63,804 nt of DNA from Thermodesulfobacteriota bacterium (GCA_034716155.1 JAYEFR010000095.1:1-63804), one strand, 5' to 3'. Positions 23,169 to 63,804 are shown, numbered from the stretch's first letter. Made by a program: numbers and translations. The notes: generated by a model not told the origin, from the sequence alone.

Positions 23169-23171
23169 AAT

Positions 23172-24272: not shown

Positions 24273-24286
24273 TTGTATTCTCCTAA

Positions 24287-25996
24287 TCAATCAGCTATAG
24301 TGGTCCTTAATATTTCTGAAACACTAGTTGTACCTTCAGCTACCTTACTTAAGCCGCTTTGTCTCAAAGTCTCCATACCCTCTTCGATGGCCTCTTTTTT
24401 TAGTTCGGATTCGGAAGCGCCCATTAGAATTAGATCCTTCATCTTTTCTGTTATTGGCATGACCTCGTAGAGTGCTATTCTTCCTTTGAATCCTGTATTT
24501 CCGCACACAGGACATCCATTACCCTTGTAGCACACCATATCTTGGGCTTTTTGAGGGTCCACACCCATCTGTATCAAGGTTTCTTTTGATACATTGTCTT
24601 TCACTTTGCACTCAGCGCAAATTTTTCTCGCAAGCCTTTGTGCTACTACGAGATTTACCGAGGAGGCAACAAGAAATGGTTCTATACCCATATTGAGCAA
24701 TCTGTTTATAGTAGAAGGGGCATCATTGGTATGTAGTGTGGAGAGTACAAGATGACCTGTAAGCGCAGCTTTGATAGCGATTTCAGCTGTCTCAAAATCC
24801 CTTATCTCTCCAACCATGATGATGTCAGGATCCTGCCTTAGGAAAGATCTCAGTGCTGCAGCAAAGGTAAGGCCGATTTCTTCATGCATATGTACTTGAT
24901 TTATCCCTGTCAGGTCATATTCTACAGGGTCTTCTGCAGTGGAAATGTTTCTCTCTGTTGTGTTAAGTTCAGTAAGCGATGAATAAAGGGTGGTTGTTTT
25001 TCCGGATCCAGTAGGGCCAGTTACCAGAACCATGCCCCAGGGTTTATATATGGCCTCTTTAAATTTTTTCAGGGAATCTTCCTCGAATCCAAGTTTGGTC
25101 ATGTCAAGTTGGAGACTGGATTTATCAAGTATTCTTAAGACTATCTTTTCACCAAAGAGGGTGGGTAGTACTGATACACGGAATTCGACCTCTTTCCCGC
25201 CCTCTATTTTTAGTTTTATTCTTCCGTCCTGAGGTAGCCTACGTTCAGCTATATCCAGTTTGGACATGATTTTTATTCTGGAGATTACAGCATTTTTTAG
25301 ACGCAAGGGAGGTTTCATTACTTCATGGAGCACCCCATCCAGTCTGAATCTAATCCTGAAGAGTTTTTCATAGGGTTCAATATGTAGGTCACTTGCACCT
25401 TTTTTTATGGCGTCTACTAAGAAAAGATTGACTAATTTTATCACGGGGGCTTGGTCAGCCTCTTTCTCAAGATCCCCTACGGACACCTCGTCCCCTGCGG
25501 CAGCTATCTCGACATCCCCTTCCATATCCTCCATATCACTTAAGGCAGTATCTAAGGTAGCAGACTGATCATAGAAGTGGTCAATTGCCCATTTCAGGGA
25601 ATCTTCCGAGGTAGCATATACCTCTATAGAATAACCGGTTAAGAATTTTAAGTCGTCCACTGCGAATATATTGGCGGGATCAGTCATTGCGACATTGAGA
25701 GTGGCTCCTTCTCTTTTAAATGGAATTGCCATGTATTTTTTGACTATATTGAGTGGAATAAGCCTTATCACATCAGGATCCGGTTCGATCTTTTTAAGTA
25801 TTACAGGTGGGACTCCATATTGCCTGGCTAAAAATTCCACAAGCTGTTCTTCACTAAGGTAGCCTAACTTAACCAGCTGTGAGCCTAGCCTCGATCCTGA
25901 ACCCCTTTGTGTCTTTTGCGCCTCGATAAGTTGATCTTGAGTTATTAAGGCATTTTTGACTAGTTTTTCGCCTAACAGTTCCTTTGCCATCGCCAT
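24287..25996 (-). CDS. pilB: type IV pilus assembly ATPase PilB (GspE family)
   Basis: 569 aa with an N-terminal GSPII_E_N domain, Walker A GPTGSGKTT, a tetracysteine motif (CAEC...CPVCG) and IMVGEIRD. Confidence 0.9.
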   Translation of the reverse strand: MAMAKELLGEKLVKNALITQDQLIEAQKTQRGSGSRLGSQLVKLGYLSEEQLVEFLARQYGVPPVILKKIEPDPDVIRLIPLNIVKKYMAIPFKREGATLNVAMTDPANIFAVDDLKFLTGYSIEVYATSEDSLKWAIDHFYDQSATLDTALSDMEDMEGDVEIAAAGDEVSVGDLEKEADQAPVIKLVNLFLVDAIKKGASDLHIEPYEKLFRIRFRLDGVLHEVMKPPLRLKNAVISRIKIMSKLDIAERRLPQDGRIKLKIEGGKEVEFRVSVLPTLFGEKIVLRILDKSSLQLDMTKLGFEEDSLKKFKEAIYKPWGMVLVTGPTGSGKTTTLYSSLTELNTTERNISTAEDPVEYDLTGINQVHMHEEIGLTFAAALRSFLRQDPDIIMVGEIRDFETAEIAIKAALTGHLVLSTLHTNDAPSTINRLLNMGIEPFLVASSVNLVVAQRLARKICAECKVKDNVSKETLIQMGVDPQKAQDMVCYKGNGCPVCGNTGFKGRIALYEVMPITEKMKDLILMGASESELKKEAIEEGMETLRQSGLSKVAEGTTSVSEILRTTIAD

Positions 25997-37634: not shown

Positions 37635-39911
37635 ATGGCAAGGTCTCATATATCTTCACATCCCAAGGCCATAAAGATAGGGAAAGGGATCTATCAATCC
37701 TTTGTAGAAAAGGCAAATGATGGCGTCTTTGTGTATCAGGATCACCATTTCTGTTATGTAAACCCCGAATTTAAAAGGGCATTAGGCTATCAAACCTCAG
37801 AACTTCTGTGTATGGGGCTTAAAGATATCGTGCGTGCCGGGATGAGAGATATAATCGAACAGCGCTATGAAAAGCGTATAAGGGGAGAGGATGTGCCACA
37901 GCGCTATGAGGTTGTCTTTATAACAAAAGACAGTATTGAGCGTATCTTTTCCCTTTCGCCCTCTGTTATCAAGTTTAACAACAGAGCAGCAACATTGAAT
38001 ATTGCCAGGGATATTACTGAGCGGGTGCATATTCAGCAGCAGTTGGAGGCCTCAAACCGGTTTGTAACAAGCCTGATAAATAACTCCAGTGATGCCATTA
38101 TTGCTACAGATATGGAAGGTAAGATATTAATATTCAATGATGCCGCTGAGAAGATCACGGGTTACAAGGCTGAGGATCTCTTGAACACCAAGATATCCAT
38201 AAGGGATTTTATGGGCCCGGGCGAGCAAAAGAGGATATTGGCCCTTTTGAATAAAGGATCTGCCAGGGCTCCATCTCGGATCATAGGCGAAGAGACCACA
38301 CTGCATGGCTTGGATGGCTCCCTTATCCCTATTTCTTTATCAGTATCCTATATCTATAAGGATGATAAACCTGTTGCCACCATAAGTATCTTTAGGGATC
38401 TCAGGCCAATACGAGAGGTAGAAGAAAGGCTCAGGGAGTCAGAGCAAAAATACCGCATATTAGTGGAAAAGGCCAATGATGGGATATTCGTATATCAAGA
38501 CCACATGTTTAAATACACCAACCCAAGGTTCAGGGAACTCCTGGACTATTCTCAAGACGAAATATTCAAGATGGGTCTGAAAGATCTTGTCAGGCCTGAA
38601 TTAAAAGATGAGATTGAGGATCGGTATGAACGCCGTATACATGGAGAAAAGGTTCCAGAACACTATGAGATTTCCTTTTTCGGTAAGGATAAAAAATGGA
38701 GAGATTTTGAGATCACGCCTGCTGTTATAGAATACGAAGGCAAAATAGCTACTCAAAATATCATCAGGGATATCACCGAGAGAAAATTGGCTGAAAGGGC
38801 ATTACAGATCAGTGAGGCAAGGTATAGGACAACAGTAGAACATACGGGTACTGCTATGATGATATTTGAAGATGATTATACTATATCGTTGGCTAATCAC
38901 CAGGCTGAGCTGCTAACAGGTTACTCAAGGCAAGAGATGGAAGGTAAGATGCTCTGGCCGGATATTGTCTTTGAAGAAGATATAGGGCGTATGAAGCTTT
39001 ATCATAAGGCTAGAAGGCAAATGGATAAAGGGACACCATCAGAATATGAATTTCGTCTTGTTGACAAATTTGGCAGAATAAAGGATGCATTTATTACCAT
39101 AGGAGTTATACCAGGGACAAAAAGCAGCGTTGCCTCAATAATGGATATAACCCAGAGAAAGCGCATGGAAGAGGAATTGGCCCAGACAAAGAAGCTGGCA
39201 ATGTTAGGAGAGATGTCGGCACATGTTGCACATGAGGTAAGGAATCCATTGCAACAGATCAAAACAGGTGTGGATTTCTTTTCCATGGCAGGCGAGCTTG
39301 ATCAAAGACAAAAGAAGATCCTAAATGGCATAATGAGCGGGATAAAAAATCTTGAAAGCTTTGTAACCCAGATCCTTGAATGGACAAAATCTGGCAAGGT
39401 CAGGCTGAGAAGACATAGTATAAATAATATCATAAATGGCCTGGTCTTTAACTATGAAGATCAGTTTAAGGCCCAAGATATCAAGGTAGAGGCGAGCTTT
39501 ACAAAGGATGTGGATAAGATAACCATAGATGGAATACAGCTACGGCAGGCCATGGAGGATATCATTGATAATGCTATGGATGCCATGCCGGATGGAGGTA
39601 TCTTAAAGATTGCCACGCAATATCTACCCAGGTATCCCTTTAAAGGGGAGATGGGCTATAATAAAGAATCTTTTACGGCAGACGCATTGGAGATCCGGAT
39701 CAAAGATACCGGCCGTGGGATCCCCAAGAAAGATCTGGGAAGGGTATTCCAACCGTTCTTTACGACAAAGACCAGGGGTACGGGTCTGGGCCTGGCCCTG
39801 GCTCAGAAGGTTGTATCGATCCACCATGGAGAGATTGAGGCCAAAAGCGATGGTAAAAATGGAGCGGAGTTTATTATCAGGGTGCCTATATCCCAGGGTG
39901 AGAGAAAATAG
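37635..39911 (+). CDS. multi-PAS sensor histidine kinase (cytoplasmic)
   Basis: 758 aa with about four PAS units, the H-box SAHVAHEVRNPL, the N-box DNAMDAM, and the G-boxes DTGRGI and GTGLGL. Confidence 0.88.
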   Translation: MARSHISSHPKAIKIGKGIYQSFVEKANDGVFVYQDHHFCYVNPEFKRALGYQTSELLCMGLKDIVRAGMRDIIEQRYEKRIRGEDVPQRYEVVFITKDSIERIFSLSPSVIKFNNRAATLNIARDITERVHIQQQLEASNRFVTSLINNSSDAIIATDMEGKILIFNDAAEKITGYKAEDLLNTKISIRDFMGPGEQKRILALLNKGSARAPSRIIGEETTLHGLDGSLIPISLSVSYIYKDDKPVATISIFRDLRPIREVEERLRESEQKYRILVEKANDGIFVYQDHMFKYTNPRFRELLDYSQDEIFKMGLKDLVRPELKDEIEDRYERRIHGEKVPEHYEISFFGKDKKWRDFEITPAVIEYEGKIATQNIIRDITERKLAERALQISEARYRTTVEHTGTAMMIFEDDYTISLANHQAELLTGYSRQEMEGKMLWPDIVFEEDIGRMKLYHKARRQMDKGTPSEYEFRLVDKFGRIKDAFITIGVIPGTKSSVASIMDITQRKRMEEELAQTKKLAMLGEMSAHVAHEVRNPLQQIKTGVDFFSMAGELDQRQKKILNGIMSGIKNLESFVTQILEWTKSGKVRLRRHSINNIINGLVFNYEDQFKAQDIKVEASFTKDVDKITIDGIQLRQAMEDIIDNAMDAMPDGGILKIATQYLPRYPFKGEMGYNKESFTADALEIRIKDTGRGIPKKDLGRVFQPFFTTKTRGTGLGLALAQKVVSIHHGEIEAKSDGKNGAEFIIRVPISQGERK

Positions 39912-39919
39912 AGGGCTTT

Positions 39920-41323
39920 ATGGATAACAAAAAGAGTGTCCTATTGGTAGATGATGAAGAGGTCTTCTTAGAACAATTAAAGGAGGCACTAGAGGCCAAC
40001 CATCCTGAACTTGGGATAGATACCGCAGAAGACGGGGTGTGTGCTTTAGAAAGGCTTTCAAAATTTCACTACGATATCGTACTTACTGACATAAAGATGC
40101 CCCGTATGGATGGAATTTCTCTCTTAAAGGAGATCCGTAGCAGGTTTCCATCTACATATGTAGTAATGATCACAGCATTCGGCAGTGTATCCTCTGCAGT
40201 GGAGGCCATGAAATATGGCGCATATGATTTCCTAGAAAAGCCCTTTAATATGGAGACATTAGAACTTTCTCTGGCAAAGATAATAAAGCAACAGGAGATA
40301 TTAGAAGAAAACATCGGGCTCAAAGGACAGATCCAGCAGCATGCTCAGGGGATGGATCAGATTGTGGGTGCGCACCCAAAGATGCAGAAGGTCTATGAGC
40401 AGATTATCACGGCAGCGGATATTGAGCTTACTGTGCTTATAATGGGAGAGACAGGGACAGGCAAGGAACTAGTAGCCAGGTCCGTTCATTCAAGGAGTGA
40501 GAGGAAAGGAAGACCCTTTGTGGTCATTAACTGCGCTGCCGTGCCGGAAAACCTTTTAGAATCCGAGTTTTTCGGACATGAGAAAGGAGCCTTTAGCGGG
40601 GCTATAGCTCAGAGGATAGGGAAGTTCGAAAAGGCTCATACAGGCACCCTTTTTCTTGACGAGATAGGTGATATCCCTTTGGGTCTGCAGGCCAAGATGC
40701 TAAGGGTCTTACAGGATGGCCACATTACACGATTGGGGAGCAACCAGGAGATAAAACTGGACTTTCGGGTGATTTGCGCCACTAACCGTCCGATTGAAGA
40801 GATGATCAAGAAAAAGCTCTTTCGTGAAGACCTCTATTATCGTATCAGTGTCTTTCCTATCTGGGTGCCGCCTCTTAGGCAACGGGTACAAGACATACCA
40901 TTACTTGTTAACCACTTTATTACAAAATACAGGGAAAGTCTTAATTCAAATCTAAAAGGGGTGTCCCCTGAGGTAATGGATCAATTGATGAAGTATCCGT
41001 GGCCAGGCAATGTGCGTGAGCTGGAAAATGTTGTGCAGCGGGCCATGGTTTCTATTAGTACTGAGGTTATTGAGAAGATCCCTTCTCTTGGTGCAGGTTT
41101 GGAAAATAATCTCCCGCTCCAAAACATCTCCATAGAGGGCAGGGAAGATACGACATTTCAAGATCTCAAGCAATCCCTTGTTGAGGAATTTGAAGAAAGA
41201 TATTTCTCATCCTTGCTGAATAAGCATGGTGGTGTAATTGCTGCAGCAGCGCGTGAGGCAGGGCTGAATTATAAGACCTTTTATCTGAAACTGGGAAAGT
41301 ATGGGCTATTAAAGAAACGCTAA
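39920..41323 (+). CDS. sigma-54-dependent response regulator (NtrC family)
   Basis: 467 aa with REC (DDEE...DIVLTDIKMP), AAA+ (GETGTGKE, GAFSGA, LFLDEIGD) and a C-terminal Fis-type HTH. Confidence 0.9.
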   Translation: MDNKKSVLLVDDEEVFLEQLKEALEANHPELGIDTAEDGVCALERLSKFHYDIVLTDIKMPRMDGISLLKEIRSRFPSTYVVMITAFGSVSSAVEAMKYGAYDFLEKPFNMETLELSLAKIIKQQEILEENIGLKGQIQQHAQGMDQIVGAHPKMQKVYEQIITAADIELTVLIMGETGTGKELVARSVHSRSERKGRPFVVINCAAVPENLLESEFFGHEKGAFSGAIAQRIGKFEKAHTGTLFLDEIGDIPLGLQAKMLRVLQDGHITRLGSNQEIKLDFRVICATNRPIEEMIKKKLFREDLYYRISVFPIWVPPLRQRVQDIPLLVNHFITKYRESLNSNLKGVSPEVMDQLMKYPWPGNVRELENVVQRAMVSISTEVIEKIPSLGAGLENNLPLQNISIEGREDTTFQDLKQSLVEEFEERYFSSLLNKHGGVIAAAAREAGLNYKTFYLKLGKYGLLKKR

Positions 41324-48651: not shown

Positions 48652-49245
48652 ATGAAACGTGTATTTAAATACATTGGGAAGGGGCTATTAATCATTATAG
48701 TTGCTTTTGCTCTTGGGCTAGGTTCTTTGGTTGCATCAATATATATACAGGAAAAGGGCCCATGGAGGAAAGTAAGGAACGGCCCATGGGAAACCGGTCT
48801 GAACACCGGAAGTATAGAGGCCGGGCCGTATACCAGGGCAAAAGTAGCCCTGTTTGGAACATTGGCGCTCGATCCATCCGAGGTGGTTTATTACATTGCG
48901 TTTAATGATTCTACGGGCCAGCCGCTCGATTGCAGATGTAATTACAGGATTGAGGGTAAGGATCTTAGCACGCGCTGGTGGAGTGTTACTGTCTACAAAG
49001 ACTTTCACTTTATCCCCAATGATCAGAAACGATACTCGTATTCCAAGACCAACATTAGCAGTGATAAGGATGGACGATGGATAGTAAAATTGTCTTCGAA
49101 GCCCCAGGAGGGAAACTGGATTCCCTTAGGGGATAGGGAAGGGAGATTGATACTCGCTCTGAGACTATATAACCCTGATCCCTCAGCAATTGAAGGTCTC
49201 GATAGTATTGATCTGCCAGACATTATCAGGGAGGGATGCAGATGA
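48652..49245 (+). CDS. membrane-anchored DUF1214 domain protein
   Basis: 197 aa with an N-terminal TM. The pattern EVVYYIAFNDSTGQPLD...NYRI....LSTRWWSVTVY.......N...RYS....NISSDKDGRW..........NWIPL......L.LRLYNP fits DUF1214. Confidence 0.65.
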   Translation: MKRVFKYIGKGLLIIIVAFALGLGSLVASIYIQEKGPWRKVRNGPWETGLNTGSIEAGPYTRAKVALFGTLALDPSEVVYYIAFNDSTGQPLDCRCNYRIEGKDLSTRWWSVTVYKDFHFIPNDQKRYSYSKTNISSDKDGRWIVKLSSKPQEGNWIPLGDREGRLILALRLYNPDPSAIEGLDSIDLPDIIREGCR

Positions 49246-49802
49246 AAGGTTGGAAACAGGATATATTGGCAATACTTATTTTAGCTGTAGTAGTACATCT
49301 TATCGCGCTTTGGGCCATTCCACGTCTTATCGAGGGTATGGTCGAAAAAGGGATGTTAGCCAAGGAGAGATGCAAGCTGAACGCCATATGCTGCAGGGAC
49401 ATTAACGTGGCAGGCATAGATGAGATACCCATGGCCAACCCTGACTCCTTATTCTCGCGCTTGGTCTATGATGTGTCTAAAGAGCCGCTTCGCATACATT
49501 TAACCGTGCCTGATACTGGCATGTATTGGTCATTTTCATTATATGCTAGAAACCTGGATAATTACTATGTTTTGAATGATAGGCGCCTTAAATCAGAGTA
49601 TGGCTCAAGGGAGATGGAGATAGCCTTGGTAGGGCCGAAATCTCATTACAAAAAGACCTCGACAAACGAAGTGATGGTGGTATCGCCAAGCGATAGGGGC
49701 ACAGGTCTTATCCGGATGATAATTGCGGACAGATACAGCGCCAAGGGAATCGAAGAAATAAGAGAATTAAAAAAGGCACAAGAGCTGTCATACACTGAAT
49801 AA
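49236..49802 (+). CDS. membrane-anchored DUF1254-like protein
   Basis: 188 aa with an N-terminal TM. The pattern NPDSLFSRLVYDVSKEPLRIHLTVPDTGMYWSFSLY resembles the DUF1254 core. It overlaps the previous gene by 10 nt. Confidence 0.5.
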   Translation: MQMKGWKQDILAILILAVVVHLIALWAIPRLIEGMVEKGMLAKERCKLNAICCRDINVAGIDEIPMANPDSLFSRLVYDVSKEPLRIHLTVPDTGMYWSFSLYARNLDNYYVLNDRRLKSEYGSREMEIALVGPKSHYKKTSTNEVMVVSPSDRGTGLIRMIIADRYSAKGIEEIRELKKAQELSYTE

Positions 49803-49920: not shown

Positions 49921-50157
49921 CTAGCACTTTTTGCCCTTCCGACGCACCTCCCAATATAATCTTCCGATACATAGGAACACGGCCAGAATCAATAAACCGG
50001 CCATGAAGAGGGGTTCTGTGTTAAACTTTGTATCAACCCAGCGACCAACAAGGAGAAATAAAAGCGAGGAAATAACGATAGTAAAACCCCAGGCACTGAC
50101 CATAAATATCTGAAAGTTGTTTAATCTATCCTGGTCTCTTTTGTGTGCGATCATCAT
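49921..50157 (-). CDS. AtpZ / ATP-synthase gene-1 (PF09527-like) small membrane protein
   Basis: 78 aa with two TM helices joined by LLVGRWVDTKFNTEPLF, matching the G..LD....T.P pattern I recall for ATPase_gene1 proteins. An AAGGAGG RBS lies upstream. Confidence 0.5.
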   Translation of the reverse strand: MMIAHKRDQDRLNNFQIFMVSAWGFTIVISSLLFLLVGRWVDTKFNTEPLFMAGLLILAVFLCIGRLYWEVRRKGKKC

Positions 50158-50192
50158 TATTTATCCTCCTTAGTTTACATACTATCTTACCT

Positions 50193-50222
50193 GGAGGATG
50201 GGGAAAAAGATCCCCATCCTCC
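50193..50222 (-). promoter_or_regulatory. perfect 12-bp GC-rich hairpin between two small genes
   Basis: GGAGGATGGGGA-aaaaga-TCCCCATCCTCC has no U-run on the transcribed strand. It may be an attenuator, stabiliser or processing site, and one arm is SD-like GGAGGA. Confidence 0.5.
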
Positions 50223-50228
50223 AAACAC

Positions 50229-50504
50229 TCAGCTTACTAGGCTTTTGAGGGTATCTATAACCGGTGCGGTGAAAAGGGCTATAAGGATCGTGTAAAGTGC
50301 GAAGGAGCCAACTGCTTCACTGAGGTATATCTTGGGATATCTGTGTTTTAAAGAGGTGATAATCAGACCACCCATGATCAGGCATCCGAGGTGAAAGTAG
50401 GGGAAATTTCCGCCGGCAGTAGTGATGTATTCTGCATAACCAAATGATGCGGTTATTAATATAACAAAGACTGTCATCAAGAATGTTTGAAATGTCCTTT
50501 TCAT
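50229..50504 (-). CDS. small secreted/membrane protein, unknown family
   Basis: 91 aa with a signal-like N-terminus ending FGYA-EY, then two hydrophobic helices. An AAAGGAGGA RBS lies upstream. Confidence 0.5.
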   Translation of the reverse strand: MKRTFQTFLMTVFVILITASFGYAEYITTAGGNFPYFHLGCLIMGGLIITSLKHRYPKIYLSEAVGSFALYTILIALFTAPVIDTLKSLVS

Positions 50505-50557
50505 AATTTATATCCTCCTTTGTTGATTTTTTTATTTGCTCTACTGCTTTACAGTAA

Positions 50558-50573
50558 TGAAATAATCATGCCA
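50558..50573 (-). promoter_or_regulatory. weaker candidate sigma-54 promoter
   Basis: The minus strand reads TGGCATGATTATTTCA. The -24 element and spacing are correct, but the -12 is TTTCA instead of TTGCA. It lies about 55 nt upstream of the ATG at 50504. A 6-N7-6 palindrome, ATTGAAtgaaatgTTCAAT, sits at 50711-50729. Confidence 0.4.
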
Positions 50574-50807
50574 TCCGTCGCCAGCGGAACGGATTTATGG
50601 AAAACACCCATAACTCATTGATTATAAAACAATTTTCTCACGTCGCCCACGGGACTGAAAAAAATCAAGGATCAAAAAGACTAAAATTTTTAAAAGAAAC
50701 GTTTAGTGGCATTGAATGAAATGTTCAATTACTGATAAGATATGAGCACATTCTTATGGCCAAAAACATTTTTGATCAGACAGACTACGGATACCGTCAA
50801 CAGCCTT

Positions 50808-52187
50808 TCAGTCTTTCTCGAAGGGGATCGAGTACCTTTCTAATTTCCTCTCAAAGGTGGGTCGAGAGATCCCGAGGATTTCACAGATCTCCCCCTTATT
50901 TTTATTGGTCTCCCTTATGACTCTTCTGATATGTCTCTCCTCCACCTCGTCAAGGGTCGTAAACCTTCCGGATTCCATATGTGCGTCCTCTCCATGCTCT
51001 CCTTTTGCAACTTCGTCGGGGGCGATATCGAGAAGTTCAGGGAAGTCCCCCTTTCCGAGGATTTGCCCCTTGGCAACCACAGCAGCCCTGACCAGCAGAT
51101 TTTCCAACTCTCTGATATTCCCAGGCCAGCTATACTTAAGAAAGCTATCCATCACCTCATCGGATATCCCGGCTATTCGCTTGTGGAGATCTATATTTAT
51201 CTTGGCCAGAAGATAATCGATAAGGGGCTTGATATCTTCCTTTCTCTGCCTTAATGGAGGTATCTTTATGGATACGATATTCAGGCGATAAAACAAGTCA
51301 TCCCTGAATCTGCCTTCTTTTACCAGGGTTTTGAGATCCTTGTTAGTTGCGGCAATGATGCGTGCATTCACCCTTACTTTGTCTTTGCCGCCAACCCTTT
51401 CAAACTCCATCTCCTGAAGTACCCTTAGGAGCTTGGCCTGAAGGTTTACGGACATCTCGCTGATCTCGTCTAAAAAGACAGTGCCATAGCGGGCAAGTTC
51501 GAACTTGCCCAGTTTTCTGCTGATTGCACCGGTAAATGAACCCTTCTCATGACCGAAGAGTTCCGATTCAAGCAATGTTTCTACAATGGCAGAACAGTTA
51601 ACCGCAATATAGGGCTCATTTTTTGCGGTGTTGTTATGGATAACCTTGGCAATTAGCTCTTTGCCTGTTCCGCTCTCACCCTCGATAAGCACCGTTGTCC
51701 TGCTTTGAGAAACGATTCCTACCGTCTTGAATATCTCTCTCATCTCTGTTCCGGTGCCAATAATATCCCCCACCTTGAAATCGCGTGAGGGCTCCATGAG
51801 GAGCCCATCTATCTTCTTTTCCATCTCAATGGTATTTATCGCCTTCTTGATTGCTATATCGAGTTCATCAATATCCACAGGCTTATGAATATAGTCAAAT
51901 GCCCCTTCCTTCATAGCCCTGATAGTGGACTCCATATCATGGTGGGCGGTAATCATTATTACCTTTACGTTCTCATCCTCTTTTATCAAATCCTCGAGGA
52001 TGGTGAACCCGTCTACATCGGGAAGCCTGATGTCAAGTATGACCACATCCGGAGATGCTTCAACAAACCTTCCTAGACCGTCTGTGCCGGTCAGGGCGGT
52101 ATATACCTTATATCCTTCTTCAGTAAGATAGAGATCAAGTGTTTCGCAAATAGAACTGTCATCATCGATAACAAGGATTTTTGACAT
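50808..52187 (-). CDS. sigma-54-dependent response regulator (NtrC family)
   Basis: I moved the start to ATG 52187 (MSKILVIDDD) behind GAGGGA. It has REC, AAA+ (GESGTGKE, GSFTGA, VFLDEISE) and a C-terminal HTH. Confidence 0.9.
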   Translation of the reverse strand: MSKILVIDDDSSICETLDLYLTEEGYKVYTALTGTDGLGRFVEASPDVVILDIRLPDVDGFTILEDLIKEDENVKVIMITAHHDMESTIRAMKEGAFDYIHKPVDIDELDIAIKKAINTIEMEKKIDGLLMEPSRDFKVGDIIGTGTEMREIFKTVGIVSQSRTTVLIEGESGTGKELIAKVIHNNTAKNEPYIAVNCSAIVETLLESELFGHEKGSFTGAISRKLGKFELARYGTVFLDEISEMSVNLQAKLLRVLQEMEFERVGGKDKVRVNARIIAATNKDLKTLVKEGRFRDDLFYRLNIVSIKIPPLRQRKEDIKPLIDYLLAKINIDLHKRIAGISDEVMDSFLKYSWPGNIRELENLLVRAAVVAKGQILGKGDFPELLDIAPDEVAKGEHGEDAHMESGRFTTLDEVEERHIRRVIRETNKNKGEICEILGISRPTFERKLERYSIPFEKD

Positions 52188-52222
52188 AATAGTATCCCTC
52201 AATATAAGATGGCAGCCATGTG

Positions 52223-54829
52223 TTATTCGCTCATGGCCGTATGTACCTTCATATCTTGCTGGCTTATTGGAAGAGTTACTATAAACTTTGTCCCCTCTCC
52301 CTTAACACTTAAGATCTCTATCATACCCCCATGCTGTTCTATGATCTTTTTGACCTGCGAGAGCCCCAGGCCGGTACCATACCTTTTTCTGGTAAAGAAC
52401 GGGTTGAACAGATGCGGCAGGTCTTTCTTATCTATACCGCACCCATTATCCTCAATCTCAATTATTATTGATTCATGGCTGGCCCGGTTCGTGGATATCA
52501 AAAGGTTTCCTCCTGTGTTCATGGCATCAATGGCATTGCGATAGATGTTTAAAAATGCATGTTCCAACATCGCGGAATCAACCTCGATAGTCGGCATATC
52601 TTCCTCAAATCTTGTCTGGACATGGATATGTTTATCTAATATTGATTTTTCCACCAGTGCAAAGGCATGTTCAAGAATCTTTTTTATATTAGAAGATGCC
52701 TTTTGGGGTTCTGCAGGCTTGGCAAAAATGAGGATATCATTGACGATTTTTTCGAGGTGCTCGACCTCTCTTTGGGCGATCTTAAATCTTTTCAAATCAT
52801 TGCCTGCTGGCTGTATGCGTTTTTCTAAAATTTTTAGGCTCATCTTGATGGAAGATAAAGGGTTTCTCACCTCGTGGGCAATACCTGCAGACAACTGTCC
52901 GACTGCAGCAAGTTTCTGGCTCTCGTAATACTTTTTTTCTAAGCTCTTAAACTCTGTAATATCCCGCTGGACAAGGACATAACGGTCTGCCCCTTTTACA
53001 GGGCACGGGGTTATTAATAAGCTTCTTCTTGAGCCATCCCGCGCCGTTGCTTCAAGCTCCCAGGGCAAAAATATGCCTTTCTTCGCATCCGCCCATTTTC
53101 TTAGAACAAGTTCTCTGTTTTCAGGGTCAGCGAACTCTGTGAAGTGTTTGCCCTTGATCCCCTTGGAGACCACCCCTTCTCTTTTCATATCCTTACTCAC
53201 ATAATTGATGATCCCGTCACTGCTAAGATCAAATATCTTATCCGGCAGGCTGTCAACAATAGACTGGAGATAATTGTAGAGTCCTTCTATCTCTTTTCTG
53301 AGATTGATATTCTCCGCCAGCTCATTTTTGAGTGTCTCGGCATATTCCCTTAAATTATGGGCCATTTCGTGTTCTTTTGACACATCCTGAATGGTCTCAA
53401 TGGCTGATATTATCTCACCCTTCTCATCATAGATCGGGGCAGCTAAGAAATAGAGATAACGGTCTTTTCCTCCCAGATTCTTAAAAAAATCCCTCGCTTC
53501 ATAGGCACCTTCTAGTGTTTCCGATCTTTTTACCCTCTTGGCGCCATAATATTTTATAAGGTCTTCAATATCGTAATCAATGATAATGTCGGCAATAAGT
53601 GGACGTTTTTCACTGTAAAACGGTTTATAATGATTGTCTGTAGCGATCATATCTTTTACATCATAACCTGTCAGTTCAGCGCATGCCTTATTCCAGAAAG
53701 TGACCTTGTGTTCTCTGTTAATAACGAATGTGGGCACGGGAGAACCTTCGGTAATTCCCTCAACGGTTTTTTTCTCTCTGAGGAGCTTTCCTTTCCAGTC
53801 GTCTCTTTCCTTGAGCCTTTTAAGCTCTTCTTTACGGCGCAATCGCCTCACACCTGAATGGGCAATTGCCATACCCGTGATGATGACTGCTACAATAAGG
53901 CCGGCGGCCCCTAGAATAATGCTTACAAAGGCCTTCCTAATCAGTGCAATAACCGTATTATAGGGGGTAGCGATGGCAACAGACCATATATTTGAGCCCA
54001 CATGAATCGGGGCATAGGCAATAATACTTTTTTGGGCCTTCCCTTTGTTATTCCTTAATACATATTCTCCATACCCCTTTTTTCCCTTAAGCAGGAGTTT
54101 TTTGAGAGACACTCCGGTATTGGCTGCAATAAGTTTCACACTACTTCCAATTAAATCCGGGTTTGGATGAGAGATGAACACGCCATTCTCATCAATAATC
54201 CATGGACGGGATGATTCAATCTCACCCACTTGACGCACGTAGCGGTCCATTATTGACTTCAGAGAAAGTGTTGCAAGAACTAAGCCTGCAAACTCACCTT
54301 TTGCATTTAGTTCAGGGATAGCGATCACAATCGAGTTGATCCGGGGTTTCCCCTCTTCATCCTGTTCTGTTTTCGGCAGGATCAGGTTGCTGATATAAGG
54401 TTCCTTTGTTTTTTTTATTTCCTGTAAAGAGAAATACCCCCCAAGGTTTTTACCCGCGATCTTCTTCAAGGGGGAAGGCGGATAACTACACAGGATGAGA
54501 CCTTTTTCATTCAGTCTTGCAATGAATTGAATCTTTCCTTCCATGGTGTCATAGAGGGTCTTTATGCTTTCTTCGGACTTTATCCCATCCTCAGCGGGAA
54601 GCCTGGATAGTATGATCATGCTTTTTTCGGCACTGATAATGAGGTCTTCAATTACGGCTGCCGCACCACTGGCAATGGTTGCTTGTTGTCGGCTGAATTG
54701 CTCCACGATACCTTTCTCCTGTGCATGATTGATGGTTAGAGCAAGCAGAATAATCAATATGACAACGGCTGACGTCGCCAGCCAGGTGGAGACCCTCACA
54801 TTGGTTTTGAAATAGCCTTTTTTCATCAC
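52223..54829 (-). CDS. transmembrane Cache + PAS sensor histidine kinase
   Basis: 868 aa with TM, a ~270-aa periplasmic Cache-like domain and a second TM. It then has two PAS units, the H-box AGIAHEVRNPL, the N-box RNAIDAM, and the G-boxes DNGCGI and GTGLGL. Confidence 0.88.
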   Translation of the reverse strand: MMKKGYFKTNVRVSTWLATSAVVILIILLALTINHAQEKGIVEQFSRQQATIASGAAAVIEDLIISAEKSMIILSRLPAEDGIKSEESIKTLYDTMEGKIQFIARLNEKGLILCSYPPSPLKKIAGKNLGGYFSLQEIKKTKEPYISNLILPKTEQDEEGKPRINSIVIAIPELNAKGEFAGLVLATLSLKSIMDRYVRQVGEIESSRPWIIDENGVFISHPNPDLIGSSVKLIAANTGVSLKKLLLKGKKGYGEYVLRNNKGKAQKSIIAYAPIHVGSNIWSVAIATPYNTVIALIRKAFVSIILGAAGLIVAVIITGMAIAHSGVRRLRRKEELKRLKERDDWKGKLLREKKTVEGITEGSPVPTFVINREHKVTFWNKACAELTGYDVKDMIATDNHYKPFYSEKRPLIADIIIDYDIEDLIKYYGAKRVKRSETLEGAYEARDFFKNLGGKDRYLYFLAAPIYDEKGEIISAIETIQDVSKEHEMAHNLREYAETLKNELAENINLRKEIEGLYNYLQSIVDSLPDKIFDLSSDGIINYVSKDMKREGVVSKGIKGKHFTEFADPENRELVLRKWADAKKGIFLPWELEATARDGSRRSLLITPCPVKGADRYVLVQRDITEFKSLEKKYYESQKLAAVGQLSAGIAHEVRNPLSSIKMSLKILEKRIQPAGNDLKRFKIAQREVEHLEKIVNDILIFAKPAEPQKASSNIKKILEHAFALVEKSILDKHIHVQTRFEEDMPTIEVDSAMLEHAFLNIYRNAIDAMNTGGNLLISTNRASHESIIIEIEDNGCGIDKKDLPHLFNPFFTRKRYGTGLGLSQVKKIIEQHGGMIEILSVKGEGTKFIVTLPISQQDMKVHTAMSE

Positions 54830-54897
54830 TTGATCTTATTTTTATCCATAGGCCTCTTGCGAACAGGAGAGACCCATGGCCTTAAAGAATATGTTCA

Positions 54898-55071
54898 TCA
54901 TGCCTTATTTTTTTTCTTACCTTCAGATTCTTTAATAGCGATTAACACATAAATAGCTATAGCAGCACCTAAAGAAACGAGAAGGGTAACCAATCCGCTT
55001 TGGATTCCAATAACCCACTTGCAAACAAGCCAGGCAACCAGGTAGGTCGCTACAGTTAATATCTCCCTCAT
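54898..55071 (-). CDS. possible 57-aa two-TM membrane peptide upstream of the kinase
   Basis: It falls below the ORF-track cutoff. ATG 55071 has an AAGAGG RBS 7 nt upstream. My hand translation is MREILTVATYLVAWLVCKWVIGIQSGLVTLLVSLGAAIAIYVLIAIKESEGKKKNKA. Confidence 0.35.
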   Translation of the reverse strand: MREILTVATYLVAWLVCKWVIGIQSGLVTLLVSLGAAIAIYVLIAIKESEGKKKNKA

Positions 55072-55195
55072 TATTTAGCCTCTTAAAAGATACGATCTCT
55101 TAATAGATTATATAATCCCACCCCGAAATTCTAATGTCTTAATACTACAGGCCTTAGCCTTAATTTTCAATAAAAATCATATAACTGTTCAAACG

Positions 55196-55214
55196 TGGAC
55201 AGTTCAGATGTCCA
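55196..55214. promoter_or_regulatory. candidate enhancer palindrome
   Basis: TGGACA-gttcaga-TGTCCA is a perfect 6-N7-6 inverted repeat in the divergent spacer, about 280 nt upstream of the -24 element. Confidence 0.3.
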
Positions 55215-55482
55215 AGGTACGAAGGCAATAGAGGGGCAAGGAATAAAAAAAGGGGACGTGCAGAGATTGTAAAATAAGTCTTAGCATCGTGATACCTTTA
55301 GCACCCGATGAGTTACCCAATATTTTGATCTTCATGCTTCACTTTTTGTTCAATTTATCAGGCCAATTGAATAAAATGTTAAACGATATTGCCCCCAAGT
55401 ACGGGTATCTCTTGTTGGGAAATGAAGTGATAACTAAGTGATTATATAGTGTTAGCGCAAAGGCTTCTTCCTGGGATATAAA

Positions 55483-55498
55483 TGGCATATCTGTTGCA
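55483..55498 (+). promoter_or_regulatory. candidate sigma-54 (-24/-12) promoter
   Basis: TGGCATATCTGTTGCA matches TGGCAC-N5-TTGCA at every position except the C-to-T in the -24 element. It lies 105 nt upstream of the ATG at 55604. Confidence 0.6.
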
Positions 55499-55603
55499 GA
55501 GATAAATTGTAGTTGTGAGAGCGAGTACATTTTCTAAAAAGACATTAATGTGTACCATCAGGTACTAATTAAGATATAGATTAACTAGGAAAGGAGAAAA
55601 AAG

Positions 55604-55978
55604 ATGTTACGGGAATTTGAAAGGATGTTATTATTCCTACTTGCAGTAGTAGCGATTTTGTTGGTATTTTCACCAGGTGTGTTTGCCGCGGAAGCCATTC
55701 CAACAGATGATTCTTATATAAAGGTCATCTTCTCCGTGGGTGCCATGATCGGAGCTGGATTGGCAATGGGCTTGGGGGCTATCGGCGCTGGCGCAGGTAT
55801 AGGTCAGGCTGCAAGCGGAGCATCCGAGGCAGTCGGAAGGAACCCGGGGGTTCAGGGAAAGATTATGATGACCATGATGGTTGGTATGGCCATGGCAGAG
55901 TCAATTGCAATATATGCCCTGGTTATTTCGCTTATCCTTCTATATATGAATCCCTACAAGACCTTTCTTTTTGGTTAA
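55604..55978 (+). CDS. atpE: F-type ATPase subunit c homolog with N-terminal signal/TM extension (Na+-type ion-site signature)
   Basis: 124 aa. The C-terminal ~85 aa align by eye with the Ilyobacter/Propionigenium c-subunit (GIGQAASGASEAVGRNPG...MVGMAMAESIAIYALVISLILLYMNPY). Gln in GIGQ, Glu-Ser in AES and Tyr in IY correspond to the Na+ ligands. The first ~40 aa are a hydrophobic helix ending VFA-AEA. Confidence 0.8.
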   Translation: MLREFERMLLFLLAVVAILLVFSPGVFAAEAIPTDDSYIKVIFSVGAMIGAGLAMGLGAIGAGAGIGQAASGASEAVGRNPGVQGKIMMTMMVGMAMAESIAIYALVISLILLYMNPYKTFLFG

Positions 55979-56048
55979 TTGATTGTTAATTAATTATTGT
56001 ATTATGTAGTTAACACCAAAATTAACAAAAGTTAGGGGAGAGTAGACA

Positions 56049-57365
56049 ATGGCGGATACTAAAGAAGGTAAACGGATTTTCACGGTGGCAAGAGTATTTT
56101 TCCTGCTTATCGTCATCCCCTTATTACTGACAGTCTTTCTGATCTCCACCAGTATTATTCAATTAGGGGGCACATCTAAGAGAGGGGCGATTACTGTTTT
56201 GGATCGGAAATCCAAGGAAGAAATTCTGACACGGGCCACTGCTGTAGCCGAAAACGTTGCCGATTTTATCGAAGAAAGAAAAAGGGATATGTTGATTTCA
56301 ACAATTCTGCCGACAACAGCTGCAGCATATAAAGAGTTTATCGACAAGAATAAGCAGGCCCTCTGGGTTAAGAAGAATGGGAATATCGTCAAGGTTTTTG
56401 AACCCTTATATGTGGAAATGTCACTGATAGACAAGACAGGGAAGGAAATCATTAAAATAGCTGATGGCAGGGTCGAACCAAAGGCGAAGTTGGTGAATGT
56501 CAGAGACCCCGAGAACACCACTTACAAATCAGAAGATTATTTTTCAAAGGCAAAAAACCTCAACAAAGGTGAGGTTTATATATCCCGTGTTACCGGCTGG
56601 TACGTAAACAAGGCTGATTTTGAAAAGGGGGGACGGTTTAAAGGTATTATTCGCCTTGCAACGCCACTATTTAATAAGGATGGATTTGCAGGGACCATCA
56701 CCCTTGCTCTTGACGCAAGATACCTTGCAAAGTTTACTGACACAATTATACCAACCCAGGCCGGTCATATTCTAGAAGCGGATGCATCAACGGGAAATTA
56801 CACCTACATGGTTGACAACCAAGGGTTTGTTATCTCTCATCCAAATGATTATCATATAGCGGGTCTTTACAAGGATGGAACTCCAGTCCCACCTCTTAGG
56901 GATGAAATTGTTGATGAAATGACTAAGAAAGGGGAAGAGGTCTTAAATCTTAATCTACTTGGTTCTATGGATCCTGGCTTGCCGGAGGTTGCAAAGGACG
57001 CAGCTGCCGGACATTCAGGCATCAAGACCTATAAATTTGGGGGGCATACCAAGGTTGTGGCCTACTCCCCAATACAGTTTTACTCTAAAGACTTTCCGGC
57101 GCCAGCCGGATTTGGATGGGTCGGAATGGGGATAGACGTAGACAAGTTCAATGAACAGGCAACAGAGACTTCCCAACAAATAGAGAAAGAAGCACAGACA
57201 TGGATAACGACGGTAGTTTTGATCCTTATCATTGCCATTGTACTGCTCTTCATCATCTCCGCCATCCTTGCAAAAGGGATCAATCGTTCTATTGAGGCGG
57301 AGGTCCCGCCAGAGGCCGAGGAGGCAGGTCGTCATTACGATGATGAAGTTCAAGAGGATCAATAG
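56049..57365 (+). CDS. Cache-like extracytoplasmic sensor domain protein without output domain
   Basis: 438 aa with TM1 (FFLLIVIPLLLTVFLISTSII) and a ~340-aa extracytoplasmic region with Cache-like strings (YISRVTGWY..., GTITLALDARYL, YTYMVDNQGFVISHPN, VVAYSPI). TM2 follows, then only ~35 acidic residues after a HAMP-like start, AKGINRSI. Confidence 0.6.
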   Translation: MADTKEGKRIFTVARVFFLLIVIPLLLTVFLISTSIIQLGGTSKRGAITVLDRKSKEEILTRATAVAENVADFIEERKRDMLISTILPTTAAAYKEFIDKNKQALWVKKNGNIVKVFEPLYVEMSLIDKTGKEIIKIADGRVEPKAKLVNVRDPENTTYKSEDYFSKAKNLNKGEVYISRVTGWYVNKADFEKGGRFKGIIRLATPLFNKDGFAGTITLALDARYLAKFTDTIIPTQAGHILEADASTGNYTYMVDNQGFVISHPNDYHIAGLYKDGTPVPPLRDEIVDEMTKKGEEVLNLNLLGSMDPGLPEVAKDAAAGHSGIKTYKFGGHTKVVAYSPIQFYSKDFPAPAGFGWVGMGIDVDKFNEQATETSQQIEKEAQTWITTVVLILIIAIVLLFIISAILAKGINRSIEAEVPPEAEEAGRHYDDEVQEDQ

Positions 57366-57376
57366 ATTAAAGAAAA

Positions 57377-57407
57377 GGCCGGAAGAAAGCCTTCCGGCCT
57401 TTTCTTT
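57377..57407. terminator. bidirectional intrinsic terminator
   Basis: The stem is GGCCGGAAG-aaagc-CTTCCGGCC (9 bp). It is flanked by AAAA on the left and TTTTCTTT on the right, between convergent genes. Confidence 0.8.
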
Positions 57408-57423
57408 AGACATATAATCCTTA

Positions 57424-62336: not shown

Positions 62337-63804
62337 TCAGATATTCACCGGGACAGGGGCGATTACAGACGAAGAGGTAAACATCCATGCCACCAGCAGG
62401 GCATTTAAGATCGCAGCGGTGCAGATGTTGCCGGTCAGCCGGTAGAACCAGGTTGAAATTGATATTGCCATGAGAAGTACGATGATGATGTGCACAAGGT
62501 TAATTATAAAACCTACCAGCGATGCCCCGGGGCCTACAAATGGAATAAATCCCGTGGTGAAGAGAGGGATATATTGGATCGCCAGCAATATGAATAAAGG
62601 AATAAGCATTGCAGGAATGTTATATAGCAGATCGTTGGCAAAGGTCTTCATAAATACCCCTTTTTCCGGCTGTCTCAGCTGTCCGTGCAGGAGGATGCCC
62701 ATCTGGATAAATCCGATCAGCAGTAAAGGAGAATATTCCAGGAACATCAAAAATCTGTATGGGGTGAAGTTACTGGCAAAGGGGAAGATAAACCTGAAGT
62801 CAACGATGAAGATTGCCTCCAGGATGTGTTCCAGTACACAGGCATATGCGAATAGCAGGATGCCAAAAAGGATGGTCTTGCCTGCCTTTGTCCTGTTGAA
62901 TCTAAACCTTTTCTCATCGCTTGATATGCCCAGGTCAGTCAGGGTTAGGTTATCTTTTGAAGCTCCTTTTTTAAACCAGGATTTAAAGATGAAGAATCCG
63001 ATCAGATTTGTAATCACAAACCAGAACACTATACCATTGACCATCATCATTGGAAATACCTTGTCAATTCTTACAACGAATATATGGAAAGCGAACAGGA
63101 TCAGGATTATCGGGAGGTAGAAGAGCATCAAAACCCCGTTGATGCCGGCGAATTTGAAATAGTTTTTGGGGCTGCAAATGTATGTGCGCTTCATGCCCGT
63201 TGCCTGGAGCGGTTTGAAAAATCCTGCGCCGAGCAGGATCAGGCCCAGGGGCAGAATGGATGCAAAGCAGGCCAGCATGGCGATAAAACATGCCCATTCT
63301 TTTATAGGCCATATCTGTTTGTCTGGCGAAATCCAGTACCTGGTGTCGGGCTTTAGCGCTTGGCGCATCCATTCTAATGCCTCGGCTATTGCCTCACGGC
63401 TGAATGACTCCTTTACGTGGGTAGTATGGGGCATGAACACCCTGCGGGCAGTGCCATCAGCAAAATTGCCATAGGTGACACCAAACTGAGGATTAGGGTG
63501 ATCAATTACCTTTCTGGTACGCTCAGATGTCATCCATTCGCTTTCAAAGTCTTTAGTATTGGTCATACGTTTGCGATATTCATCCCATTTGCCTAAGATC
63601 ATCAGCATATTTTTTGGGTTGTCAAAGGTGGCCTCCTCGGTGTAGCCAAACCCGGAAAATGCTATGGCCTTAAGACCTGGATCCTTTAAGGCCACGGTAT
63701 AGCACATCTCAGAGCCCAGGCTGTGACCCATCAGCCCGGTGTAACTGGCATTCACATATGGGAGCGCACGCAGATATTTCAGCGAGGAGAGGGTACCATA
63801 GGTG
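62337..63804 (-). CDS. alpha/beta-hydrolase domain fused to a polytopic membrane domain (N-terminus outside the window)
   Basis: The frame stays open to the window edge (...LKYLRALPYVNASYTGLMGHSLGSEM). A GHSLG nucleophile elbow is followed by about 8-10 hydrophobic helices over ~330 aa. Confidence 0.6.
   Translation of the reverse strand, partial: TYGTLSSLKYLRALPYVNASYTGLMGHSLGSEMCYTVALKDPGLKAIAFSGFGYTEEATFDNPKNMLMILGKWDEYRKRMTNTKDFESEWMTSERTRKVIDHPNPQFGVTYGNFADGTARRVFMPHTTHVKESFSREAIAEALEWMRQALKPDTRYWISPDKQIWPIKEWACFIAMLACFASILPLGLILLGAGFFKPLQATGMKRTYICSPKNYFKFAGINGVLMLFYLPIILILFAFHIFVVRIDKVFPMMMVNGIVFWFVITNLIGFFIFKSWFKKGASKDNLTLTDLGISSDEKRFRFNRTKAGKTILFGILLFAYACVLEHILEAIFIVDFRFIFPFASNFTPYRFLMFLEYSPLLLIGFIQMGILLHGQLRQPEKGVFMKTFANDLLYNIPAMLIPLFILLAIQYIPLFTTGFIPFVGPGASLVGFIINLVHIIIVLLMAISISTWFYRLTGNICTAAILNALLVAWMFTSSSVIAPVPVNI

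Follow-up and report, generated by a model that had tools for sequence, protein, structure and literature searches.

A predicted sigma-54 two-component module linked to an ATP synthase c subunit and a Cache-only membrane protein in Syntrophales and their relatives

Introduction

The c-ring of ATP synthase sets the number of ions spent per ATP and is generally taken to be fixed for a given species. Here we describe a gene module in a 63,804-nucleotide stretch of DNA from a Thermodesulfobacteriota bacterium (GCA_034716155.1 JAYEFR010000095.1:1-63804; hereafter the window), in which the gene for an F-type c subunit is followed by the gene for a membrane protein with a Cache sensor domain, and both lie divergent from an operon for a small membrane peptide, a sensor histidine kinase and an NtrC-type sigma-54 activator. 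We refer to the 124-aa c subunit of the window as c1, to a second c paralogue as c2, to the 78-aa PF09527 protein of the window as AtpZ', and to the 57-aa and 91-aa proteins as p57 and p91. A preliminary description of the locus had offered two readings of it, a stand-alone c-ring module or a conditionally expressed alternative rotor subunit. Comparison with related loci suggests that Syntrophales and their relatives, syntrophic deltaproteobacteria that live short of energy, can remodel the ATP synthase rotor in response to a signal.

Related loci were collected by a scan of one genome per species, which returned at least 573 c-subunit relatives; the best 80 loci were retained and searched by tblastn with the window proteins. 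The lineages of these 80 loci are all Syntrophales, Smithellaceae or Desulfomonilia-type, all related genomes are metagenome-assembled genomes (MAGs), and loci outside the window carry L numbers. Two of the denominators used for synteny (74 and 62) are the loci with sufficient flank.

Results

The module comprises seven open reading frames, two sigma-54-type promoter motifs, a hairpin and a terminator (Table 1), each of which was found where the preliminary description had placed it. Its domain assignments (PF00137, PF09527, dCache and Sigma54_activat) pass the profile cut-offs, and the hairpin and the bidirectional terminator fold as it had reported. It had also remarked that atpB, atpF, atpA, atpD and atpG are absent from the 64 kb, and indeed no other atp gene was detected there, the b, delta, epsilon and gamma genes not having been searched for individually: a six-frame scan found neither the Walker motifs of alpha and beta nor the RLFGN motif of the a subunit, tblastn with Syntrophales AtpZ, AtpI and AtpB gave no match in the window, and a Pfam scan of the 20 largest remaining open reading frames returned unrelated families only.

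Table 1. Features of the c1-Cache module and its flanking regulatory elements in the window.
Feature	Position	Strand	Remarks
AtpZ', 78 aa, two-helix membrane protein	49921-50157	-	PF09527 ATPase_gene1 33.5 bits (cut-off 26.6)
Perfect 12-bp stem-loop between the p91 and AtpZ' genes	50193-50222	-	-29.8 kcal/mol, z -3.9
p91, 91-aa small membrane protein	50229-50504	-	Without Pfam/NCBIfam family
Sigma-54-like promoter of p91-AtpZ', TGGCATGATTATTTCA	50573-50558	-	Non-canonical -12 (TTTC)
Upstream-activator-site-like motif, TTGAATGAAATGTTCAA	50712-50728		About 140-155 nt upstream of the p91 promoter
NtrC-type response regulator/sigma-54 activator, 464 aa	50808-52202	-	REC + Sigma54_activat (222.7 bits) + AAA_lid_14 + HTH_8
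Membrane sensor histidine kinase, 868 aa	52223-54829	-	Periplasmic dCache_1 + 2 PAS + HisKA + HATPase_c
p57, 57-aa two-helix membrane peptide, first gene of the kinase operon	54898-55071	-	Without family
Candidate enhancer: TTCAA-N13-TTGAA dyad extended by TTGAATAAAATGTTAAA	55349-55383	+	Conserved, positioned dyad
Predicted sigma-54 promoter of the c1-Cache operon, TGGCATATCTGTTGCA	55483-55498	+	-24 TGGCAT / -12 TTGCA
c1, F-type c subunit, 124 aa, signal-peptide-like N-terminal extension	55604-55978	+	PF00137 69.7 bits (cut-off 24); TIGR01260 50.5 bits (cut-off 43.95)
Cache-only membrane protein, 438 aa: TM, dCache_1, TM, acidic tail of about 30 aa	56049-57365	+	dCache_1 63.4 bits (cut-off 45)
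Bidirectional intrinsic terminator ending the c1-Cache unit	57367-57409		19-bp stem, A/T-run flanks, -29.9 kcal/mol, z -7.7

Judged by its profile scores and the motifs of its helical hairpin, c1 is a bona fide F-type c subunit. It passes both PF00137 and the F0 subunit c equivalog TIGR01260, and the closest solved chains, the c subunits of Acetobacterium woodii, Fusobacterium nucleatum and Ilyobacter tartaricus, align with it across both helices. Residues R79-N80-P81, E99-S100 and Y104 are invariant in a six-sequence alignment of c1 and c2, and the R-N-P loop, the carboxylate Glu, the Ser and the Tyr are each kept at 90% or more in 88 c1, 59 c2 and 6 Desulfomonilia-type sequences; the helix-1 pattern GxGxxGxGxGxG is likewise invariant or conserved in all three groups. 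The cytoplasmic R-N-P loop is the part of an F-ATPase c subunit that contacts gamma and epsilon. Orthologues of c1 form a tight set, comparable to that of the Cache-only homologues, and both the coding sequence and a strong ribosome-binding site are tightly conserved among them.

The Na+ ligand set defined for I. tartaricus (Gln/Glu32, Glu65, Ser66, Thr67 and Tyr70) is incomplete in c1, which has the Glu-Ser pair and the Tyr but Ile at the Gln32 and Thr67 positions. Na+ specificity was therefore rejected for c1, whose helix-1 Gln/Glu ligand is replaced by Ile. Both c1 (window:55604-55690) and c2 (L005:11950-12037) open with a signal-peptide-like segment that ends in an Ala-rich stretch, VFAA|EA in c1 and LALAAA in c2; cleavage of this segment, should it occur, would place the mature N-terminus in the periplasm, as expected for c subunits.

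The predicted promoter of the c1-Cache operon, TGGCATATCTGTTGCA, matches TGGCAYN5TTGCW exactly, as no other site in the 64 kb does. Of 90 loci, 84 have a -24/-12 element 67-146 nt ahead of the start codon of c1, always with its GG and GC, which bears out the near-perfect element that had been noted before the c-subunit gene. Apart from the ribosome-binding site, this element is the sole conserved island in otherwise diverged intergenic DNA, and it is missing in exactly those loci that lack the two-component genes. Further upstream, about 36 of 78 non-redundant loci have the dyad TTCAA-N13-TTGAA, centred on no other place than -134 +/-3 from the -24 T and with the extended consensus ACTTTTCGTTCAA-N13-TTGAAYGAAAYGTTAAAC; near -200, another inverted repeat, AATGTTTT...AAAACATT, is found in Smithella-type loci. 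We infer that this candidate enhancer dyad may be bound by the adjacent regulator.

The second promoter motif, TGGCATGATTATTTCA before p91, had been described as -24/-12-like. It is present and conserved: the form TGGCAYGAWTATTTCA occurs 42-53 nt before the p91 ATG in the window and in L005, L006, L011, L012, L016 and L022, with a variant in L076, so that it is found in every related locus sharing the gene order of the window. Taken alone, however, the motif does not rise above chance, with seven one-mismatch matches in the window against 5.3 expected, and its -12 is non-canonical. What ties it to the c1 promoter is the sequence further upstream. With up to two mismatches, the c1 upstream consensus TTGAATGAAATGTTAAA has exactly two sites in the 64 kb against 0.05 expected, one ahead of the c promoter and one ahead of that of p91, and related upstream motifs precede p91 in L005, L011, L012, L016, L022 and L076. 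Because this motif is common to both window promoters and is conserved across loci, we infer that c1-Cache and p91-AtpZ' probably form one regulon of the adjacent activator. In one Smithella-type locus (L024:12376-12800) the AtpZ-like gene stands apart from a 64-aa gene and has its own TGGCATGATAATTCCA element together with an upstream CACTTTTCGTTCA...TTTAATATTTCATTTAAA motif that resembles the c1 enhancer. A general scan of the region for sigma-70 promoters and terminators gave background levels only.

The module is conserved well beyond the window. In 71 of 74 loci the gene next after c is the Cache gene, and p57 lies divergently upstream of the c gene in 60 of 77. As for the operon of small peptide, kinase and NtrC-type activator that faces the c gene, 48 of 62 loci have both kinase and activator, and a kinase orthologue occupies the same position in 49 of 62; activator orthologues share 71-95% identity between loci. 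The p91 and AtpZ-like pair lies within 10 kb of the module in 21 of 80 genomes, at a position that varies: in the window it comes after the activator, in Smithella-type loci after the Cache gene. The gene order has thus been reshuffled with the gene set kept, which argues for a functional link. The preliminary description had called for a search for this neighbourhood in related genomes, and among the best 80 loci it does recur, with the wiring it had drawn (two-component system, sigma-54 promoter, c subunit with a Cache-only protein, linked AtpZ-like gene) conserved.

The position of c1 relative to the remaining atp genes is best seen in L013, L063, L065, L094 and L095. In these loci the order is atpZ (PF09527), atpI (PF03899) and atpB (PF00119), then the activator-kinase-p57 operon on the opposite strand, then c1 and the Cache gene. 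That c1 stands downstream of atpB argues that it occupies the displaced native atpE position rather than being an add-on, the two-component operon having been inserted at the a/c junction. In relatives of the window, atpB is separated from c1 either by the inverted three-gene operon or by megabases, so that c1 is not a canonical member of an atp operon. In the loci examined, atpZ-atpI-atpB of this lineage is never accompanied by a co-directional atpE; the lineage's atp genes are scattered, and the preliminary premise that it is anomalous for a c gene to lie apart from an atp operon is not supported in this lineage. One contig of 2.59 Mb carries c1-Cache (L002) and also atpZ-atpI-atpB with a convergent c2 of 123 aa just past atpB (L091), and on another large contig no c gene lies within 10 kb of atpZ-atpI-atpB. 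The annotation of Candidatus Smithella cisternae likewise has a single atpB, two c genes that lie separately and an F1 operon far from them (PMC5606693). In Syntrophales, as seen in L090-L094, L123 and L133, nearly every atpZ-atpI-atpB cluster has, upstream of atpZ, a ComEA-like HHH_3 gene and an AsnC/NirDL-like (siroheme-decarboxylase-type) gene, joined in some cases by a gene for a class-III aminotransferase, and c2 is often divergent from this cluster.

The second paralogue, c2, is about 50% identical to c1 and shares the signal-peptide-like extension. Consistent differences set the two apart: GAGxGIG in helix 1 of c1 against GxGxGMG in c2, RNPGVQ against RNPEAQ in the loop, and the residue preceding the Glu. 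Clusters of c1, Cache and c2 occur in L005, L011, L012, L022, L126, L141, L156, L167, L168, L172 and L175, with c2 convergent behind the Cache gene in the first four and in several metagenome contigs; elsewhere c2 lies 2-5 kb from atpZ-atpI-atpB. It is abundant, with at least 439 metagenome matches. Counting only cases where both genes fall on retrieved stretches, and with the best 80 loci holding almost only c1, co-occurrence of the two paralogues within one genome is seen in at least two lineages.

The two genes differ in promoter class. In most of 71 c2 upstream regions, a perfect TTGACA -35 lies 135-195 nt ahead of the start codon and is followed, after a spacer of 16-18 nt, by a TA-initial -10-like hexamer, and in 32 of the 71 the sigma-70 consensus is matched at 10 or more of 12 positions. 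None of these 71 regions has a genuine -24/-12 element, the single apparent match being a mis-assigned c1. The upstream regions thus show a dichotomy of predicted promoters, -24/-12 for c1 and near-consensus sigma-70 type for c2. The position of the c2 promoter (L005:12038-12240, L090:11585-11720 and about 60 more loci; 17-nt spacer) implies a 5' leader that is unusually long for a small gene, and this leader holds conserved blocks within the five c1-Cache-c2 loci compared.

In the Cache-only protein, dCache_1 spans residues 54-344 between two hydrophobic helices, and the roughly 30 residues that follow TM2 leave no cytoplasmic output domain. TM1 and the juxtamembrane segment are conserved as strongly as the sensor domain itself. 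Hundreds of homologues that are 60-90% identical occur in Syntrophales, Syntrophobacterales and Desulfomonilia MAGs, and the family is nonetheless small, with 440 clusters at 50% identity among 1.84 billion representatives. Its nearest longer relatives are kinases, HAMP-GAF proteins and one chemoreceptor built on the same sensor module; one of them, the kinase P0362, is 54% identical over the whole module. A recent duplication of the sensor of the neighbouring kinase was considered as its origin and rejected, the two sharing 30% identity over 104 residues (E 0.001). A sequence search of the PDB gave no meaningful match for the Cache-only protein, and an AlphaFold2 model from a 30-sequence alignment reached a pLDDT of 41, too low for the fold to be read.

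Desulfomonilia-type loci place the pairing in a different setting. There, a c gene that is c2-like in sequence and a Cache gene (36-38% identical to that of the window) lie beside rnf genes, with neither a two-component system nor a -24/-12 element, which indicates that the partnership of c and Cache genes is older than sigma-54 control. At L081:8272-14909, and in L047, L055, L064, L077, L117, L121, L139 and L146, the c2-like c and Cache genes stand between a gene for a T2SSE/MshEN-like ATPase and an rnf operon (RnfA/E, RnfB, RnfC).

The activator has REC, AAA+ and Fis-type HTH domains, all above cut-off, and its sigma-54 contact loop reads GSFTGA, which places it in the NtrC family. Activator and kinase fall below all NCBIfam equivalog cut-offs. 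For the activator the best scores, all sub-threshold, are to AtoC (464 against a cut-off of 714), NtrC (411 against 559) and ZraR (353 against 760), and the kinase reaches 260 against 646 for AtoS. AtpZ' is a divergent second AtpZ copy by profile comparison: hhalign relates it to canonical Syntrophales AtpZ, whose gene sits with atpI-atpB elsewhere, with a probability of 92.6% (E 4.5e-7), and it falls below the TIGR02230 cut-off (22.4 against 46.7). Immediately upstream of it lies p91, which in Smithella-type loci is replaced before AtpZ' by a 63-71-aa version that lacks the N-terminal hydrophobic segment. Neither p91 nor p57 has a Pfam or NCBIfam match or any profile-profile similarity to AtpI or AtpZ, and the idea that p91 is an equivalent of AtpI or AtpR accordingly found no support. 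The p57 consensus is MqEiLTavtYlvvWLiC..v..IeSGL.kLliSL.aAi.vYvli.

In L012 and L016 too, the spacer between p91 and AtpZ' holds a GC-rich hairpin, with a different sequence. Since no T-run follows the 12-bp hairpin of the window, a role in processing, stability or partial termination can only be proposed. In L018 (12249-12483), 251 nt separate the 64-aa gene from the AtpZ-like gene, and this spacer folds into a long inverted repeat (-66.6 kcal/mol) that may be a miniature transposable element which entered the operon.

As for the surroundings of the module in the window, an overlapping pair of DUF1214 and DUF1254 genes adjoins it (48652-49802), and L001 is flanked by the same pair. Another sensor kinase (three PAS, HisKA, HATPase_c) and another NtrC-type sigma-54 activator are encoded co-directionally at 37635-41323. 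Genes of a type IV pilus or type II secretion system, for a T2SSF platform protein, a PilT-like ATPase and a PilB-like ATPase with an MshEN domain, occupy 21975-25996. At E <= 1e-5, Pfam gave no match for two large open reading frames, one at 16849-18165 (438 aa) and one at 62337-63803 (488 aa, continuing beyond the end of the window).

Discussion

We propose that c1 is a functional rotor subunit of a single F1Fo and that c1, AtpZ', p91 and the Cache protein are switched by the kinase and activator via sigma-54, with c2 as the constitutive subunit, an interpretation of sequence and synteny whose chances we put at about even. The kinase would sense an extracytoplasmic or energetic cue and phosphorylate the activator, which would bind the dyad and open the sigma-54 promoters. 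In this way c1 and a set of dedicated helpers (AtpZ', p91, the Cache protein) would be made together, and c1 would replace c2 or mix with it in the ring. The rotor could thereby change in ring size and H+/ATP ratio, in ion affinity or in assembly rate, and the Cache-only protein might report back to the kinase or associate with the c1 ring. Of the two preliminary readings, that of a conditionally expressed alternative rotor subunit fits best, given the second c paralogue with a sigma-70-type promoter in relatives.

Several observations weigh against this proposal. The residue equivalent to Gln32 is Ile or Met in both c1 and c2; because of this helix-1 position neither looks Na+-specific, both are H+-type in appearance, and no obvious change of coupling ion is visible. 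The Cache gene is paired with a c gene also where the sigma-54 switch is absent, and a switch model leaves its role there unexplained. The -12 of the p91 promoter departs from the canonical form. Finally, by synteny c1 holds the ancestral atpE slot and c2 does not, so that c1 could be the main copy.

This last point leads to what we consider a fairly unlikely alternative, namely that c1 is the housekeeping atpE displaced from atpB by the two-component insertion, that sigma-54 tunes the supply of rotor subunits and so the amount of ATP synthase, and that c2 is a lineage-restricted extra. Besides the five loci with c1 in the atpE position after atpB, it draws on the census, in which 79 of the best 80 loci (from at least 573 relatives) are c1-type and L077 is c2-like, and on the presence of c2 together with c1 in only some lineages. 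Against that, c2 is abundant too, often lies near atpZ-atpI-atpB and has a strong sigma-70-type promoter; the Cache-paired c of Desulfomonilia-type loci is c2-like; and it would be unusual for an essential high-copy subunit to rely wholly on an enhancer-dependent promoter. The preliminary description had reasoned that a sole c gene among scattered atp genes would be the housekeeping copy: the scattering is indeed found, but the c gene is not the only one, at least in relatives. A more specific form of the rotor proposal, which we regard as unlikely, is a gear change in Syntrophales in which, on a periplasmic or energetic signal, a second c subunit with an AtpZ-type helper of its own would be swapped or mixed into the rotor, altering ring stoichiometry and H+/ATP ratio, the Cache protein serving as a ligand-binding ring partner whose two conserved helices might dock on or in the ring. 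The model for such docking is provided by Ac45 and Voa1, which dock in the rotor rings of V-ATPases.

Other alternatives take the products out of the ATP synthase. c1, the Cache protein, p91 and AtpZ' could together form a stand-alone, signal-induced membrane complex without F1, a or b, with the c-ring as an ion-conducting pore or scaffold. A dedicated Cache partner in nearly all loci, a dedicated AtpZ paralogue, the persistence of the c-Cache pairing beside rnf genes in Desulfomonilia-type loci and a Cache TM1 as conserved as the sensor domain would all suit such a complex. We know, however, of no established stand-alone function for a bacterial c-ring, the R-N-P loop that contacts F1 is invariant in c1, and in some genomes c1 follows an atpB that has no other co-directional c gene. 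Strict conservation of the R-N-P loop and the ion-binding Glu, together with the atpB synteny, thus weakens this reading, which was the other one put forward in the preliminary description and which we now hold to be quite improbable. The output might, as a further possibility that we rate as very improbable, be the Cache-only protein alone, induced to serve the kinase as a periplasmic co-sensor or feedback modulator in the style of ZraP-ZraS or CpxP-CpxA, with the c gene on the transcript for historical reasons. The divergent layout resembles zraP/zraSR, the sensor-module family is otherwise fused to kinase, GAF/HAMP output or chemoreceptor domains (as in the 54% identical kinase P0362), and the kinase and the Cache protein of the module both have dCache_1 with weak mutual similarity. 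Yet the adjacency of c and Cache genes is older and wider than that to the two-component system, c1 is tightly conserved in its coding sequence and its strong ribosome-binding site, and the presence of an AtpZ paralogue in the shared regulon suggests that the c subunit is what is regulated.

Known systems share parts of this arrangement. The c genes of A. woodii lie in tandem inside the atp operon and are co-expressed, and one of them encodes a duplicated four-helix form without carboxylate. As here, the Na+ F1Fo of that organism has several c genes (atpE1, atpE2 and atpE3; heteromeric c-ring, PDB 4BEM), there for one F-type enzyme, and its chains designated c1 and c2 are the closest solved sequences to the window's c1. 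Unlike in A. woodii, however, both paralogues described here are ordinary two-helix subunits with a carboxylate, encoded at separate loci behind different promoter classes. In the Zra system the induced periplasmic product feeds back on the kinase, and the Psp system protects the proton-motive force. In zraP<>zraSR and pspF<>pspABCDE, a kinase with an NtrC-type activator, or an activator alone, is divergent from a sigma-54 promoter for small envelope or membrane proteins, as in the module; the targets here differ in being a rotor subunit and a Cache-only protein, the kinase inputs are dCache and PAS, and the matches to ZraS and ZraR, though among the best in NCBIfam, are sub-threshold.

N-ATPase operons, of the order atpDCQRBEFAG, carry AtpQ (gene 1, PF09527) and AtpR, and Syntrophus aciditrophicus has two F-type enzymes (Dibrova et al. 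2010, PMC2881411). The module resembles them in having a second set of c-related genes with a PF09527 protein. It differs in that no AtpR, F1, a or b genes were found in the window, that c1 scores 63.8 on the TIGR03322 alternate-F0-C profile against a cut-off of 130.85, and that c1 has a single carboxylate and Ile at the helix-1 Gln/Glu position. Membership in the N-ATPases was rejected on the sub-threshold TIGR03322 score and the missing gene set of the window. That the atp locus can be split is well known; the break in delta-proteobacteria is between c and b, and a split between a and c was reported only for epsilon-proteobacteria (Koumandou and Kossida 2014, PMC4154653). Unlike in that survey, a and c are here either fully separated or parted at their junction by an inverted two-component operon, and there are two copies of the c gene.

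The components of the module are all of known kinds, and what appears new is a c subunit under a dedicated two-component sigma-54 switch with a Cache-only partner. Our literature searches found no description of either feature, in line with the preliminary description, which knew of no c-subunit gene under enhancer-dependent two-component control. The module also brings to light a conserved family of Cache-only proteins whose sole consistent genomic partner is an ATP synthase c gene.

Smithella and Syntrophus live near the thermodynamic limit and run the ATP synthase in both directions, so that the coupling ratio matters more to them than to almost any other organism. Two rotor paralogues, one behind a constitutive-type promoter and the other behind a sensor kinase and a predicted sigma-54 switch, make the long-standing question of whether cells can adjust their rotor directly testable. 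If the isoform switch alters the rotor, it would be of real interest to bioenergetics.

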